A DNA stretch of 64,000 bases from a virus. Its lineage: Duplodnaviria > Heunggongvirae > Uroviricota > Caudoviricetes. A program made the translations under genes and the position numbers. The stretch is from IMG/VR virus record IMGVR_UViG_2713896908_000007, one strand, 5' to 3'. The notes beneath the pieces were generated by a model that worked only from the letters and a program-made list of their open reading frames with translations, was not told the DNA's origin and did not search any database. Below, one piece after another: positions 30,401-46,291 of this stretch (positions are counted from its first letter, which is position 1; each line of letters opens with the position of its first letter).

Positions 30401-33188
30401 TTATGACTTCGTTGCTGCCGGACGTGTGGCCAGCGCAATGGATTCCGACTCCCACCGCAAAGAGGCGGCGCGTCGCCGGGTATTGTCGGAGTATTCAGAT
30501 ACCGGTACCGAAAAAGCAGAGAAGTATCCGTACTTTGAGGATATGGGCTTCGACAGCGTGATTGCTGACGAAGGCCACAACTACCGCAATAGCTATAAAA
30601 ATGGTCGCGAAGCGTCACAGCTGGCCTATCTGCCCACCAGCGCGGTGGCGCAATCGGCGCGAGATATGGCAATCAAAAACGCGTACCTGATGAAAAAGAA
30701 TGGCGGGCGCGGGCCGGTTCTCCTGAGTGCAACGCCAGTCGTTAACACCCCGATCGATGCATACAACATGCTTTCTCATGTTCTGCCGAAGGAATACTGG
30801 CAGAAGATGGGGATCTACGGTCCTGATGACTTCGTTAAATTCTTCGGCAAGACCAGGCTGGAAACGGTACAGAAAATCAGCGGTGAAGTTGAAGAAAAAA
30901 TGGCGCTGGTGGGCTTTGAAAACCTTGATGCGCTGCGCGGCATATTCCATCGCTGGACAACGCTTAAAACAGCGGAAGACGTTAAGGATACCGTGGAGAT
31001 CCCGGAGCTGGACGAGCACCAGCAGGATGCACCACTTACTGAAGAACAACTGGCGGCGTATGAAGAATTGCGTCAGCAGGCGGAAGCGGCGGCCAAAGCC
31101 AACAATGGCGTAACGACCTCGGTCAATGAAGACGGCGTGATTGAGCACGAGAAAGCCCGTCCGATCTTCTCAATAATCAGGGATATGGACCGCGTATGTA
31201 CTGACATGGACCTGTACTATCGCCGGATCACCTATCGTTTCCTGCCGGAGTACGCCGATGCGGTGCAGCAGCTGGCGGACAGTTTGCCTAAACAAGCCAC
31301 CAGCGAAGACGACGACAGTGATGATTCAATCACGCAGCAATCGCAATACTCCCTGATAGATAAGGGCGAGTTTATTCAGTTGCAGGTTCCGGAAGCGTTC
31401 GAGCAGGAAGTGAATAAGCGCCTGGCCAGGTTTGGCATTGACGAACAGACCGTAACTCACCCCGTTACGCCCAAATACGCGAAGCTGATTGCCACGCTGA
31501 AGGAGTTTTTCCCGGAAGGTAAGCAAATCATCTTCACCGATGAAAAAACGCAGCACCAGAAGCTCAAGCGCATTATCTGCAATGCTCTTAACCTTGAACC
31601 TTCAAAGGTGGGGATACTGAATGCTCAGACGGTTGCCGAGGCAGGTAAAACCGGTAAGAAACTGAAAGCGGTTAAACCGCCGAAAGAGTTACCGGATGAA
31701 CCAACAGATGCACAGATAGCGAAATACAACGAGCAAATGGCTCTGTATGACGCCTATATCGCGCAGCAAAATGAAATGTCGCTGGGCGGGCTGGAAAAGA
31801 TTGCTGCCGACTTCCAGGAGGGCCGGACTCCGATCATCATCTGCAACAAAAAGGCAGAGGTGGGTATCAACCTGCATCGAGGAACGACTGACATCCATCA
31901 TCTGACGTTGCCATGGACACCAGCCAGTATCGCACAGCGTAACGGTCGCGGTGCCCGAGTTGGCTCCAACCGTGCAAGCGTTCGCGTTCACTACTACTGC
32001 GGCAAGGGTTCTTTCGATGAATACCGACTGAAGACGCTGAAGCGTAAAGCAGGCTGGATCTCCGATATCCTCCGTTCAGATAAGTCAGAAATGGAGAACG
32101 CCGACGCCAACGATATGATCGAAATGCAGATGTATACCGCTAAGGATGATGGCGAACGTCTGGCAATGATGCAGGTTCAAATGGATAAGGCGAAAGCCGC
32201 GCAACGCGCTCGCCAGAAAGAACAGGCTACTATCGACCTTCAGAACTACATCAAGGCGCAGCACGCAGCTGGTGAGGATGTGGAGGTGCTTACCGCTGAA
32301 TTAGAGCGAAGCAAAGCGGAACTTGAAAAGACCACCGCCGACGTCGCCAAATTCAAACAGGCGGTAATGGCCAAAGCAGCTGATAACGCAGACTGGAAAG
32401 CCCGCTGGGGTAGCGTCCATCACACAGACCGTACGTTGTTAGCACAGTATCGCGCGTCGTTGAAAAGCGCCATTCAGCGCAAGGCTAATATCTCTCAAGC
32501 CATCTCCCGCTATGAGAAATTATTGAACCGTACTCAGAAGGCCGCGACGGATATCAAACGCCTGCGCCCGCTGGTGGAGGATGCAATAAATAAAGGCATT
32601 ATGGATGTTGATCCTGACTTGGTTAACCATGCGAGTGAGTTCCTTGTTATCGGCGATCGCTCATGGCGTGTAGGCCAATACTACGATTGTGCCGGTGATA
32701 TCGTTCGCATTAAGTCGCTGGACTTCGACAGCCAGCGCGCAGACGTGGAGATTATCTTTACCTTCAAAGGTACCAAATCGGGTAACTGGGATGTGAAGAC
32801 GCTGGATAAACAGGTTGATGTAACTCCCGATGAAGATGCTGTTATGCAGAAAATCAGTGGTGGCGTCTCCATCGCCGGGATTAACGACATCATTTCCTGT
32901 GACGATTTCTACCGTTTCCAGCAGCGCGGCATGATCAAAATCACTGACTCATACGGCGTTCAGACTACAGAGTCAGGCTATAGCATTGATTTTGTTGGTA
33001 CCTATACGGACCCACTGAAGCATGCGGTTTACCCGGATCGCCGTGACGGCGCGCTGAAGTCGTCAATTGCAAAATGGGTGCTTGGTATGATGTCGGAAGG
33101 GAATAACCGCCAGATCCGTTCGGCAGAAACATTCCTGGTTGAACTGTTTGGCTCCAATTATGGCGATGGGAGATACGCTATCCCCTGA
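27414..33188 (+). CDS. darB: DarB-like antirestriction protein, N6-adenine methyltransferase plus helicase domains (1924 aa)
   Basis: MTase motifs LEPSAGTGVF and VVGNVPFGG; helicase motifs GFGTGLGKTT and VIADEGHNYRN. Confidence 0.8.
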   Translation: MNKLSMGVFRCSSVSEILKYIRAITSHRAPIKYGVEKVEGKSYDRLRREANQKAIDLLNSLVDGATLTDEQRQILAGYTGEGGIGGSVSEYYTPKPIAEGVWEIMKLYGADVGNTLEPSAGTGVFNETKPVGTVMTATEISSVSGRINQLLHPEDSVQISPFEQLAISTPNDSFDHVVGNVPFGGRDNTRNIDKPYAEETDMGSYFMLRMLDKIKPGGFMCVIVPPSIVSGSNMKRLRLRLSRKAEFLGAHRLPTGTFDANGTSTVVDVVLMRKHPAEMAEKIPQVDESTLESANVLWPTFISGKWFEKDGRRFVHGAQEKGFQGRIEVRADGQIDNQALKTKLIHRFESRIDWSLLDMAEPSPTADVVDEGEMRLINGVWQKYAGGRWIEADAGKELKIDAASYGADSWEALQRNLTTTEGRLGMTFTQMANVRDKYTTSISDDMVQLVDWINSQPEKYRERLYRGAMIGRMLIEYQDMKAAGHSAEQIEQQRLSLVSRLQAEIDRFGNPGRGPIAKLSGSGARAWFAFRGAIKLDGTISDELTGKLVTHDSSASYDSTSYQDTLRYLYSDLTRDPIQLDDFRLAFTGELPASDEELLNLLASTPGIAVSPYGGIVPFARATSGDINEIVAPKQEFLATLPDGPVKNNVLNQLAAIEEKRIKTPAENIRFKLNSRWFDRSVILEFLQENGYPDLRYVQSVQLEGDEMVSDTYHGGDGLFVGHRYGVVQRKDKETGEIRYEWDRKSGENATGFPAQLEKYLNGARIGGKDSATANGYREQMALLEDQFNKWIKTHDRYDELVAKYNDVFNSNIPYEHSGDPLGLKGLSGKRQPFDYQNSEVRRLSEDGRGILGFGTGLGKTTTALALEAFNYENGRSTRTAYVVPKSVLENWYYEAKEFLSEEAFSNYLFVGLDVLMDGDQIRQVPVLDENGKPVLGADGAPVMRDALKLADEATITARMNAIPHSNYRAVVFTKEQYARIPLRDDTVDEHAQDMLYDFVAAGRVASAMDSDSHRKEAARRRVLSEYSDTGTEKAEKYPYFEDMGFDSVIADEGHNYRNSYKNGREASQLAYLPTSAVAQSARDMAIKNAYLMKKNGGRGPVLLSATPVVNTPIDAYNMLSHVLPKEYWQKMGIYGPDDFVKFFGKTRLETVQKISGEVEEKMALVGFENLDALRGIFHRWTTLKTAEDVKDTVEIPELDEHQQDAPLTEEQLAAYEELRQQAEAAAKANNGVTTSVNEDGVIEHEKARPIFSIIRDMDRVCTDMDLYYRRITYRFLPEYADAVQQLADSLPKQATSEDDDSDDSITQQSQYSLIDKGEFIQLQVPEAFEQEVNKRLARFGIDEQTVTHPVTPKYAKLIATLKEFFPEGKQIIFTDEKTQHQKLKRIICNALNLEPSKVGILNAQTVAEAGKTGKKLKAVKPPKELPDEPTDAQIAKYNEQMALYDAYIAQQNEMSLGGLEKIAADFQEGRTPIIICNKKAEVGINLHRGTTDIHHLTLPWTPASIAQRNGRGARVGSNRASVRVHYYCGKGSFDEYRLKTLKRKAGWISDILRSDKSEMENADANDMIEMQMYTAKDDGERLAMMQVQMDKAKAAQRARQKEQATIDLQNYIKAQHAAGEDVEVLTAELERSKAELEKTTADVAKFKQAVMAKAADNADWKARWGSVHHTDRTLLAQYRASLKSAIQRKANISQAISRYEKLLNRTQKAATDIKRLRPLVEDAINKGIMDVDPDLVNHASEFLVIGDRSWRVGQYYDCAGDIVRIKSLDFDSQRADVEIIFTFKGTKSGNWDVKTLDKQVDVTPDEDAVMQKISGGVSIAGINDIISCDDFYRFQQRGMIKITDSYGVQTTESGYSIDFVGTYTDPLKHAVYPDRRDGALKSSIAKWVLGMMSEGNNRQIRSAETFLVELFGSNYGDGRYAIP

Positions 33189-40508: not shown

Positions 40509-40540
40509 ATGCCCGGCATCAACCGGGCATTCTTCCATTA
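40509..40540. terminator. Bidirectional terminator (ATGCCCGG-catcaa-CCGGGCAT)
   Basis: 8-bp stem flanked by A/T-rich runs; between convergent c1 and ant. Confidence 0.6.
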
Positions 40541-41653
40541 TTCAGCCGCCACCGGTTTTAACAAGCCAGCTTCGAGCAGTTTACGCGTCAACCACTGCTG
40601 GCCTTTCCCCGTTAATTGAGGCGTCAACCGTATCTGGTAGCCATCTTCATCATCCAGCACCACTTCTTTCACCGTGAAATACCCGGCGTTGATGTATTGC
40701 TGAAACGGTACATTTTTACGTCCACCGGACGCAATCAGGATGCCGTTCTCCCGTAACCAGGCAAACAGCGCGTTTTGCTTAAGTCCAACAACCTTTGCAA
40801 AATTTCCAATCAGGATCCCCTTGGCCACTGATACCCGGTCGGCAAAATCGACTTTGGGGGCTGCGGCCACCAGCTGCTGATTTAGCTGGTGGGCTTTCTG
40901 TTCCAGAAGTTGCTTTTGTTCAGCCAGTTCGGCAGCCAGACGCAGGGCTTCTGGAAGCGTCTGGGGGATTGCGATCGGTTGCTGTTCTTTTTGTCGGAAG
41001 TAGCTGTCTTCCAGTTTTTCAAAGAATGCCCATGCCTGATCGGTTTCGAGCATTTTAGCGTGACGGGCAGCTCCTCGTTCTGTCCACAGGATGAGAGAGC
41101 GCGCTTTGGGGGAGACTGGATTTTGTGAGTAGTTTAAAGCTACCCGCAAATTTTTCAGCTCATCGCCAATAACCTTGAAAAAGTGCTTCCCTTCAACAAA
41201 GCGTACTTTGTTCTCATGATGATTTTGACGAATACGGATTGTTTCTGTCCCATACCCTCTAGCAAGAGTCTCGGTTGTCACGACACGTACTCCCTGCCAT
41301 TCCAGAACGGGAATTTCATCCGGCTGATTCTGAACAACCACCAGTTCCGATTCCTGAACTGAAGGTGCATGAATTTTTTCTGATTTAACGTTAGTTGCTT
41401 TCATTCTGTGTGCCTCCTTGCGTGCTTCGGCTGCGACGGTTGCGTAATTCAGATGACCCTGTTCGAGCAGGTATTCACGGATATCGGTTAGCAGAATGCG
41501 GTGAACCGCGTGTTTGTCCTTTCTCCGGTAAAGTTGTTTGGTGATCATGAAGTAGTTGGCAATAACGCCCGGTATATCCCTGGTACTGATACAGGCAGTG
41601 TGCTGTTCAATTGCCTCGATCATCTCTTCACGGGTGACTAATGACGTTCTCAT
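40538..41653 (-). CDS. ant: Antirepressor (Ant1-like; ORF6N plus KilA-C type domains, 371 aa)
   Basis: C-terminal antirepressor-type sequence (LPEALRLAAELAEQKQLLEQKAHQL..LTGKGQQWLTRKLLEAG); AGGAGG 4 nt upstream; ATGA overlap with icd-like ORF. Confidence 0.7.
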   Translation of the reverse strand: MRTSLVTREEMIEAIEQHTACISTRDIPGVIANYFMITKQLYRRKDKHAVHRILLTDIREYLLEQGHLNYATVAAEARKEAHRMKATNVKSEKIHAPSVQESELVVVQNQPDEIPVLEWQGVRVVTTETLARGYGTETIRIRQNHHENKVRFVEGKHFFKVIGDELKNLRVALNYSQNPVSPKARSLILWTERGAARHAKMLETDQAWAFFEKLEDSYFRQKEQQPIAIPQTLPEALRLAAELAEQKQLLEQKAHQLNQQLVAAAPKVDFADRVSVAKGILIGNFAKVVGLKQNALFAWLRENGILIASGGRKNVPFQQYINAGYFTVKEVVLDDEDGYQIRLTPQLTGKGQQWLTRKLLEAGLLKPVAAE

Positions 41654-41871
41654 AGTCCCTCCTGAGCAGAAGCGTTAACAGGGAGGCACCAGTAACTGAG
41701 AGAATTGCGCGAATCGGTAGAAAAGCGGGCAGAGAAAATACAGGGAGCATCCGGAAGCTGAGAACGTGCCTCATCTTCTGTCGGTGCAATAACGAAGTGA
41801 TAGTGACGTTTTTGGCAGGAGTAAAAGCGCCAGATAAATTCAGGATGAGCAGGGGTAGGGATAGTAGCCAC
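41650..41871 (-). CDS. icd: Icd-like small protein (73 aa, GTG start) coupled to ant
   Basis: AAGGAGG 8 nt upstream of GTG; stop overlaps ant start; preceded by structured leader. Confidence 0.5.
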   Translation of the reverse strand: MATIPTPAHPEFIWRFYSCQKRHYHFVIAPTEDEARSQLPDAPCIFSARFSTDSRNSLSYWCLPVNASAQEGL

Positions 41872-42054
41872 AATGGCAGCCTCCTTTTGCTAATTTAAGG
41901 AGCTACCGCGTGAGGTCTCAATCTCAATGGCGGTAGCACTGACTGGGTTGAGACTACCGGCGCAAAAGGGAACCGGCCTGCCTTTCGGCAGCCCAGCCAG
42001 CACTACCATTGATCTCTGAGCTAAACGCTACGTATGGCTGTGCGATGGCATGAC

Positions 42055-42079
42055 ACAAAAAAAGACGCTTTTGGCGTCT
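42055..42079 (-). terminator. Intrinsic terminator (AGACGC-caaaa-GCGUCU + U7) downstream of pacB
   Basis: 6-bp stem 42063..42079 with A-run 42057..42063 on plus strand. Confidence 0.6.
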
Positions 42080-42190
42080 GTGTCGCCTTTTGCATTATCC
42101 GGGGTCTCAATCCCGGCACCCGTTTTACTGAGGTGCCTGATAAGCATAAACCGAAAATGCCTCAAGGCGCAAGAGGTCAGGTTCAATGTA
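42055..42190 (-). ncRNA. Candidate c4-like antisense RNA of the immI-type module
   Basis: Hairpin CCGGG-AUUGAGAC-CCCGG presents a loop complementary to GGUAGUCUCAACC in the downstream icd leader (plus 41946..41958); ends in AGACGC..GCGUCU hairpin + U7. Confidence 0.35.
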
Positions 42191-42210
42191 ACATCGGTAG
42201 TTAAAAAACA

Positions 42211-42227
42211 CAATTTATTAGAGCAAA
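42211..42227 (-). promoter_or_regulatory. C1 operator-like site (15/17)
   Basis: CAATTTATTAGAGCAAA 4 bp beyond pacB stop, upstream of c4-like/icd/ant region. Confidence 0.65.
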
Positions 42228-42230
42228 TAT

Positions 42231-45034: not shown

Positions 45035-45115
45035 GAAAGGCGGGAAAGCCCACAGGGCTTTAAAAAAAAATCATTACGGTGTTAGCATAAAAACCTGTAT
45101 CAATGAGCGGTGACT

Positions 45116-46291
45116 ATGTTAAGAGCGACAAAAGTACGCATCTATCCAACCACTAAACAGGCTGAGTATCTCAACGCCCAGTTCGGCGCCGTGCGTTTTG
45201 CGTACAACAAAGCTCTTCACATCAAAAAACACGCTTACCAGCGACACGGAGTGAATTTAAGTCCGCGTAAAGATTTAAAACCGTTGTTGTCTGTGGCGAA
45301 GAAGTCCCGTAAGTATGCCTGGCTTAAAGAATTTGATTCAATGGCATTGCAACAGGCGGTGATTAATCTTGATGTGGCGTTTTCCAACTTTTTTAATCCG
45401 AAGCTGAAAGCCCGGTTCCCGACGTTTAAACGTAAACATGGGAAGCAATCGAGCTACCATTGTGTCGGGATTAAAGTACTGGAGAATGCCATCAAAATTC
45501 CTAAGCTGGCACCGATAGAAGCGCGTATACACCGTGTAATGACGGGAAAAGTGACGAGCATAACAATCACTCGCAGTGCCACCGGGAAATACTACGCATC
45601 CATCCTTTGTGAAGACGGTATTCCCACACCAGCGAAACCTGCGTATCTGGAGGAAGAAAAGATTACTGGTGTGGATATGGGACTTGAGCACTATGCCATC
45701 AGGTCTGACCGGGCAAAAATTGCGAATCCCCGCCATCTCATCAATGCCAGCCGTAATCTGCGACGCAAACAAAAAGCGCTATCCCGCAAGCAAAAGGGAA
45801 GCGCGAATCGTAAAAAGGCCAGAATCCGTCTTGCGGCCATACACGAACGGGTAGCGAATGCCCGTGCTGATTTTCAACATAAACTTTCTCGTACAATTGT
45901 TGACGAAAACCAAGCGGTAATTGTCGAGACGCTGAAAACAGCCAACATGATGAAAAACCACAATCTGGCAAGAGCAATAGGTGATGCAGGCTGGCATAGC
46001 TTCATCACAAAGCTGGAGTACAAGGCAGCGGAAAAAGGCGTTCACCTGGTAAAACTCGACCAGTGGTTTGCCAGTTCGAAAACGTGCCATTGTTGTGGTT
46101 ACAAAATGCCGGAAATGCCGCTTCATAAACGCATCTGGCGATGCCCTGAATGTGAAGCAGAGCATGACCGCGATATCAATGCGGCACTCAACATCCGGCA
46201 AAAAGGGATACTGGAACTAAAGGCGGCGGGACTCGTCGTCTCTGCCCATGGAGGCCAGCGTAAATCCGTCGTACAGACGGTTGCGGCCTGA
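45116..46291 (+). CDS. tnpB: TnpB (IS200/IS605 OrfB family, 391 aa)
   Basis: N-terminus MLRATKVRIYPTTKQAEYL; RuvC-like motifs GVDMGL, VIVETL, HDRDINAALNI; zinc finger CHCCGY..CPECEAEHD. Confidence 0.9.
   Translation: MLRATKVRIYPTTKQAEYLNAQFGAVRFAYNKALHIKKHAYQRHGVNLSPRKDLKPLLSVAKKSRKYAWLKEFDSMALQQAVINLDVAFSNFFNPKLKARFPTFKRKHGKQSSYHCVGIKVLENAIKIPKLAPIEARIHRVMTGKVTSITITRSATGKYYASILCEDGIPTPAKPAYLEEEKITGVDMGLEHYAIRSDRAKIANPRHLINASRNLRRKQKALSRKQKGSANRKKARIRLAAIHERVANARADFQHKLSRTIVDENQAVIVETLKTANMMKNHNLARAIGDAGWHSFITKLEYKAAEKGVHLVKLDQWFASSKTCHCCGYKMPEMPLHKRIWRCPECEAEHDRDINAALNIRQKGILELKAAGLVVSAHGGQRKSVVQTVAA

Follow-up and report, generated by a model that had tools for sequence, protein, structure and literature searches.

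The window analysed here is a stretch of 64,000 nucleotides from a tailed-phage genome (Caudoviricetes; IMG/VR virus record IMGVR_UViG_2713896908_000007). Open reading frames (ORFs) of phage P1 types, Cre, C1, Coi, PacB and PacA, flank a self-contained cassette of 1.7 kb that lies between pacB and c1 and consists of a C1 operator, promoters, a leader, a C4 antisense RNA gene, icd, ant1/ant2 and a terminator. All of the cassette ORFs are intact in the window. A sequence with 100% identity over 1,851 bp spanning the cassette is present in plasmid pEA16-1_1 of Escherichia albertii BIA_16-1 (NZ_CP117651.1), a 99-kb P1-like phage-plasmid. Judging from its sequence, the locus is likely to be a complete and probably functional cassette of the P1 immI type, carried between pacB and c1 as the second copy in a P1-like plasmid. 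Its features, listed from the operator to the far end, are all on the minus strand:

42211..42227 (-), C1-repressor operator-like site TTTGCTCTAATAAATTG, which matches the 17-bp C1 consensus at 15/17 positions and aligns with annotated P1 Oc4; equivalent of P1 Oc4/Op51
42185..42213 (-), putative C1-controlled upstream promoter, -35 TTGTGT at 42213..42208, 17-nt spacer, -10 TACATT at 42190..42185; equivalent of P1 P2c4/P51a
42143..42172 (-), putative constitutive promoter, -35 TTGCGC, -10 TATGCT, predicted start near 42136; equivalent of P1 P1c4/P51b
42058..42136 (-), IsrK-type leader RNA, Rfam RF01394 isrK, 58.2 bits against a gathering threshold of 50, model positions 1-77 of 77
42110..42104 (-), a1 UUGAGAC, in a leader hairpin loop of the minimum-energy fold
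42093..42086 (-), b1 GCAAAAGG, in the leader RNA
42079..42063 (-), stem of the intrinsic terminator of the leader RNA, with a U-run, from a terminator scan
41926..42013 (-), C4 antisense RNA gene, Rfam RF01695, 75 bits against a gathering threshold of 45, model positions 1-87 of 87
about 42007..41929 (-), predicted mature C4 RNA of ~79 nt, ends transferred from annotated P1 c4
41969..41962 (-), b' CCUUUUGC, in the loop of C4 hairpin 2, from the C4 structure
41954..41948 (-), a' GUCUCAA, single strand after hairpin 2, from the C4 structure
41880..41927 (-), C4 target region of the icd-ant messenger RNA (mRNA), from exact complementarity to a'/b' and the geometry of annotated P1 a2/b2
41921..41915 (-), a2 UUGAGAC, with a wobble copy at 41927..41921
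41890..41883 (-), b2 GCAAAAGG, overlapping the icd Shine-Dalgarno sequence AAGGAGG (41886..41880)
41650..41871 (-), icd-like gene, 73 aa, GTG start, 73% identity to P1 Icd; NCBIfam phage_ICD_like, 49.8 bits against a cut-off of 25
40538..41653 (-), antirepressor Ant1, 371 aa, Pfam ORF6N and KilAC (ANT) domains, 55% identity to P1 Ant1 overall
41404..41402 (-), ATG of the internal Ant2 start M84, conserved, with its own AAGGAGG upstream
40509..40530 (-), terminator-like hairpin AUGCCCGG-loop-CCGGGCAU followed by AAUUUAUU, read from the sequence; right-hand cassette boundary, directly adjoining the c1 stop codon

The C4 segment has a folding energy of -46.4 kcal/mol (z = -5.6), and its minimum-energy fold is the family structure, a long closing stem with two internal hairpins. 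Compensatory changes are seen in 14 of the 26 consensus C4 pairs among 17 homologues. The heptamer GUCUCAA occurs once in the region, from 41954, and its complement UUGAGAC occurs at 42110 and 41921; a second complementary pair joins b' CCUUUUGC with GCAAAAGG at 42093 and at 41890. The real leader has both a 7-mer and an 8-mer flanked on each side by a complementary copy; shuffling it 20,000 times produced the former arrangement 39 times and the latter 3 times. A preliminary description of this DNA, made from the letters and ORF translations, had pointed to a minus-strand hairpin with an 8-nt loop complementary to GUCUCAA and to a second hairpin at 41902..41937 showing UUGAGAC. Both are present in minimum-energy folds, the former as GGG-AUUGAGAC-CCC and the latter with UUGAGAUUGAGAC displayed in its loop. 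The placement of GUCUCAA inside a C4 gene and the second pair b'/b1/b2 go beyond that description. Several of its other readings stand as written: the operator-like site at 42211..42227, the 73-codon ORF with a GTG start and a strong Shine-Dalgarno sequence, which proves to be AAGGAGG 8 nt before the GTG, and the overlap of the TGA of this ORF with the ATG of the 371-aa antirepressor ORF as ATGA. The likeness to the logic of P1 immI that it proposed is also borne out, in that the cassette combines a C1-type operator with a small RNA and its complementary targets, translationally coupled icd and ant genes, and an Ant related to P1 Ant1/Ant2.

Processing of C4 from a longer transcript, to an RNA of ~77 nt, and its trans action are established for P1 and P7, and RNase P excises C4 in P1; by analogy, the cassette C4 would be processed and would repress in trans. 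In pEA16-1_1 and many other plasmids, PGAP annotates a coding sequence (CDS) of 39 codons at 41890..42009 (-), named 'ash family protein', which overlaps the C4 gene and has no NCBIfam match. This CDS is probably a mis-annotated RNA gene; by position it is the equivalent of orf45 in the Salmonella prophage Gifsy-1.

The recognition boxes were compared across a set of modules comprising 80 viral contigs found via Icd, 13 chromosomal loci found via the leader pattern, and P1, P7, RCS47 and Gifsy-1. In each module, a' and b' were located from the C4 structure and the flanks were searched for their complements, with one G-U wobble allowed per site and a non-cognate control. A MAFFT alignment of whole leaders sets a' one column off between P1-type and IsrK-type rows and leaves the b boxes unaligned, and was not used for pair counting. 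Complementary sites for both a' and b' are found upstream and downstream in 58 of 58 unique modules, representing 19 a'/b' combinations; a non-cognate a' has sites on both sides in 9 of 348 pairings. In all parsed leaders, 10-11 nt separate the end of b2 from the start codon. Five combinations occur at the pacB-c1 site, where a is GAGAC, GGAAC or GGCCU and b is GCAAAAGG, GUCAAAGG or GUCUAAGG, and each of the five displays matching changes at all three positions. Such three-way covariation is strong support for antisense control of the P1 type. The a and b boxes reassort freely across loci. In pEA16-1_1 and in each of the eight IMG/VR genome bins with several modules, modules from separate loci have different specificities; the sole exception looks like a tandem duplicate inside one locus.

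Two modules of identical specificity lie in IMGVR_UViG_2698536372_000019 (L012), at 1362 and 2928, ~1.57 kb apart in tandem, and may represent a tandem duplication or a chimeric assembly; the same 42-kb contig holds two further P1-type modules. Another record, IMGVR_UViG_651053023_000001 (L069, L079), contains two closely spaced, divergent P1-type modules with a common a' (CUGCUAA) and different b' boxes. No sim genes were found upstream of P1-type modules in the IMG/VR loci.

Where the cassette starts and stops is seen when its junctions are aligned with P1: it begins directly after the pacB stop codon and extends to just before the c1 stop, replacing the 24-bp pacB-c1 spacer of P1, and the operator at 42211..42227 falls inside the inserted segment, so that the cassette brings its own. 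The window as a whole contains 13 operator-like C1 sites where 0.37 are expected by chance. The pacB-c1 cassette is found in 289 PLSDB plasmids at >=80% coverage and in phages RCS47, JL22 and vB_EcoM-673R5. Among 5,426 complete E. coli genomes, 279 have the cassette and 309 have the empty P1-type junction. The insertion is already published at the gene level: Venturini et al. 2019 (PMC6906374) describe two short ORFs and ant between pacB and c1 in pTZ20_1P, like RCS47. The cassette beside c1 is a common member of a known family. The RNAs are absent from the annotation tables retrieved for records with the pacB-c1 cassette. Some P1-type modules have c1 downstream and no pacB upstream, and the site beside c1 can thus host other arrangements.

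Outside the window, pEA16-1_1 retains a canonical immI, composed of Rfam c4-a1b1 and C4 matches followed by icd, ant, an insertion sequence, kilA and repL. The position next to sim and kilA-repL that P1-type immI occupies is held by this other module and not by the cassette. The preliminary description had immI relocated beside c1; the P1 alignment instead reveals an added pacB-c1 insertion, with the canonical C4-icd-ant-kilA-repL order kept elsewhere in the plasmid. The canonical C4 (L004:5572-5657) is a recombinant, with a' CUGCUAA as in P7 and b' CACUAAC as in P1, compared with a' GUCUCAA and b' CCUUUUGC in the cassette. Since the two C4 specificities differ, the cassette and canonical switches should work independently of each other and so widen the range of immunity and anti-immunity, as far as can be predicted from their boxes.

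Compared with immI of P1 and P7, the cassette has the same order of parts and is homologous over its whole length, and its leader can be aligned with P1 immI at every base between the operator and icd. The shared features include the C1 operator over the upstream promoter, the C4 fold, the position of b2 over the icd Shine-Dalgarno sequence, the ATGA coupling of icd and ant, and the nested Ant2 start at codon 84. The P1 partners of a' CUGUCAA are a1 and a2 (UUGACAG), and those of b' UCACUAAC are b1 and b2 (GUUAGUGA). Unlike in P1 and P7, the cassette is an extra copy placed between pacB and c1 rather than beside sim, kilA and repL; both a' and b' are different, the spacer between leader and C4 is ~20 nt longer, icd starts with GTG, and an ORF6N domain replaces the middle of Ant. 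Ant is a mosaic of P1 Ant1 that keeps residues 1-84 and M84, has a replaced middle and is ~90% identical in its C-terminal part.

The two cassette promoters are assigned by alignment to annotated P1 promoters. The -35 element of the putative upstream promoter overlaps the C1 operator-like site, and the -10 element of the putative constitutive promoter aligns with that of P1 P1c4; the Rfam isrK model begins at 42136, 7 nt downstream of this cassette -10. In the place of the leader, P1 has a match to Rfam c4-a1b1, and other loci have isrK and c4-a1b1 matches that overlap. The terminator after b1 is stronger in the cassette than in P1, which has a weaker hairpin and U-run there. In the P1 immI leader (L002:1278-1320), a weak hairpin (CCGCA...UGCGG) followed by UAUUUUUGUGU lies at the position of the IsrK terminator, and P1 too may make a short a1/b1 leader RNA. 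A terminator unique to IsrK-type leaders was considered as a distinguishing feature and dropped, as P1 has its weaker counterpart in the same place.

RCS47 and pTZ20_1P carry the same cassette at the same site (PMC6906374), with RCS47 92.7% identical over 1,851 bp. RCS47 differs in its b specificity, with b' CCUUUGAC and b1/b2 GUCAAAGG. The published descriptions and annotations of these two elements list ant and hypothetical ORFs only, and no RNAs, operator or icd. In the P1-related phage D6, leader and C4 are 97% identical to the window and are followed by icd and an Ant. D6 differs in context (ref ... icd, ant, pmgF, simB) and in its Rha/Roi/KilA-type Ant of different length.

The leader of the cassette belongs to the Rfam family of IsrK, a small RNA (sRNA) known from Gifsy-1, and the resemblance extends to other parts of the isrK-orf45-anrP region of that prophage. 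Both have a1 in the loop of hairpin 2, a leaky terminator and then a segment with the C4 fold, a2/b2 before the antirepressor gene, and an upstream ORF that is AUGA-coupled to the antirepressor. Gifsy-1 differs from the cassette in having neither icd nor a C1 operator; its anrP-coupled orf45 overlaps the C4 segment, and its antirepressor belongs to a lambdoid prophage. The Gifsy-1 sequence used here is the machine-read text of S7 Fig of PMC4825925; neither a blastn search of the phage collection with the Rfam isrK consensus nor an exact 23-nt pattern run on one genome from each species returned Salmonella. The S7 sequence aligns with C4 modules, and within it the "orf45" segment conforms to the C4 fold. 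IsrK contains a1 UUGGCGU and b1 UCACCG, "orf45" contains b' CGGUGA and a' ACGCCAA, and a2/b2 precede anrP. The sequence as printed has Cs at 158 and 161; the IsrK-orf45 pairs that the paper verified, G28-C162 and G31-C159, would be a1:a' pairs if the S7 text lost one base between 121 and 158. Among chromosomal prophage loci, isrK (RF01394) and c4-a1b1 (RF03163) matches overlap in five (L086, L090, L091, L092 and L093), and in 13 of 13 loci C4 lies ~25-30 nt downstream of the leader match.

The two RNAs are kept apart in the literature and in databases. Rfam places isrK outside the C4 clan, IsrK and c4 appear as unrelated entries in a 2025 review, and in the APSE phage paper they are annotated as two distinct sRNAs; P1, C4 and RNase P are unmentioned in PMC4825925. 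That study (Hershko-Shalev et al. 2016) reports that IsrK in trans raises anrP translation ~140-fold in Gifsy-1, and Hfq binding, accumulation and trans activation of an antirepressor by IsrK have been demonstrated for Gifsy-1 only. We regard the chances as evenly balanced that IsrK-type sRNAs are the a1/b1 leaders of C4 switches and orf45 is C4, all being versions of one widespread three-partner device made of a leader (decoy or cis-lock), an antisense RNA and an mRNA target. On the same proposal, the reassorting boxes would form an immunity-specificity code, and P1-like plasmids would stack two orthogonal copies, one beside c1, broadening the set of relatives that are excluded or induced.

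A mechanism for the cassette can be proposed in which transcription, RNA processing, repression, the direction of the leader effect and the targeting of C1 by Ant all follow the P1/P7 and Gifsy-1 paradigms. C1 bound to the operator would shut the upstream promoter, and the weaker downstream constitutive promoter would transcribe from ~42136. Most transcripts would end at the intrinsic terminator, yielding an IsrK-like RNA of ~80 nt with a1 and b1. Read-through transcripts would carry C4, icd and ant, and C4 (~79 nt) would be excised from them. Its a' and b' boxes would then pair with a2 and b2 of the mRNA, and with b2 covering the icd Shine-Dalgarno sequence, icd would stay untranslated; no Ant1 or Ant2 would be made either, because ant is coupled to icd via AUGA. 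An excess of the a1/b1 leader would compete for a' and b', or the leader would lock C4 in cis; competition would relieve repression, as IsrK does in trans. Ant released from repression would finally inactivate the C1 repressor.

Several observations weigh against a functional cassette that works in this way. A consensus promoter scan detects neither putative cassette promoter, both being weak matches to the consensus. Icd starts with GTG in the cassette and with ATG in most relatives. The PLSDB gene table of pEA16-1_1 lists no ant CDS, yet the ORF is intact in the window. With the middle domain of Ant replaced, C1 is not assured as its target. Unconstrained duplex energies separate cognate from non-cognate pairs only roughly, as short oligomers find alternative sites, and the pairing claims made here rest on base-by-base complementarity rather than on such energies. 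Basal anrP translation in Gifsy-1 rose, and did not fall, when a1 was mutated in cis (PMC4825925, Table 1D). A pure decoy does not predict this rise, and a role of the leader in cis therefore has to be kept open. The cassette leader may also act in cis, given that a1/b1 are paired with a'/b' in its full-length fold.

Taken to its end, the last point leads to a switch that acts in cis alone: no trans-acting C4 is made, the long transcript is locked by pairing of a1/b1 with a'/b', the short leader RNA opens the lock in trans, and the ORF at 41890..42009 is translated. The minimum-energy fold of the whole 281-nt leader does pair a1/b1 with a'/b', the mutational and probing data for Gifsy-1 were read as a structural switch, and an orf45-SPA fusion protein was detected (PMC4825925). 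The cassette region, however, matches C4, which is known to be processed and to act in trans in P1 and P7, and a'/b' also co-vary with a2/b2, which a cis model with two partners does not require. The short ORF ends 19 nt before icd and has neither a strong Shine-Dalgarno sequence nor a family match. In Gifsy-1, the a1/a' double mutants give 224 and 327 units compared with 4 in the wild type, and repression is not restored (PMC4825925); we infer that they stay derepressed because the third partner, a2, is also needed. We therefore consider a switch confined to cis improbable, and prefer a C4 that would act on the icd-ant mRNA in trans.

The preliminary description assigned the antisense function differently. 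It took the upstream hairpin as part of a c4-like RNA, spanning 42055..42190, that represses icd and ant via GUCUCAA, within an immI moved as a whole beside c1. The hairpin and the complementarity are real, and an RNA from the upstream region probably exists as a discrete small species, as the isrK match and the terminator suggest. The proposed span is too long, since Rfam and the terminator scan predict 42136..42058. The C4 covariance model matches 41926..42013 instead, a segment that contains GUCUCAA, and the upstream element has its P1 homologue in the a1/b1 target region. The C4 RNA carries GUCUCAA and the hairpin loop is the target copy a1, so antisense and target had been interchanged. 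GUCUCAA also lies 77 nt upstream of the icd start codon rather than at the ribosome-binding site, the equivalent Gifsy-1 RNA activates its antirepressor, and the canonical immI is still in the plasmid. The upstream leader RNA would, by analogy, activate rather than repress ant expression, and the opposite assignment has very little chance of being right.

It is equally hard to credit that recombination between P1-like elements left the cassette behind as a remnant with no present function: the duplication of canonical immI functions, the weak promoter matches and the ant CDS missing from the PLSDB table would fit such a relic, but all ORFs are intact, the cassette is kept in the 289 plasmids and 279 complete E. 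coli genomes counted above, and at least five recognition combinations at the pacB-c1 site have exact compensating changes at three positions each, a triple-compensated diversification that requires selection on RNA pairing.

P1-like phage-plasmids often carry resistance genes and come in two common layouts, only one of which is represented by the P1 reference genome. In about half of the E. coli elements covered here, a second antirepressor switch, whose RNA specificity is its own, sits next to c1. The RNA genes of this second switch are unannotated and its C4 is mislabelled, with consequences for predicting superinfection immunity, induction when a relative enters, and plasmid coexistence. 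What is added here to the published insertion is the unannotated RNA layer, a combinatorial and triple-compensated specificity code, and the proposed unification of IsrK and C4. If the IsrK and C4 literatures do describe the same device, its repressor half is accounted for by the P1 work, and its a1/b1 half, hitherto without an explanation, by the Gifsy-1 work. Orthogonal RNA pairs are also available ready-made from the natural three-way covariation.

Some further features lie apart from the cassette. A 393-aa ORF for a TnpB of the IS200/IS605 type (RNA-guided endonuclease family) is located directly upstream of pacA in the window, at 45110..46291 (+); reference P1 has no TnpB there. Outside the window, pEA16-1_1 carries two tRNA genes (L004:29917-29989 and 31427-31499) between a methyltransferase gene and dnaB, and the same region includes a match to the STnc100 sRNA family (L004:30565-30680).

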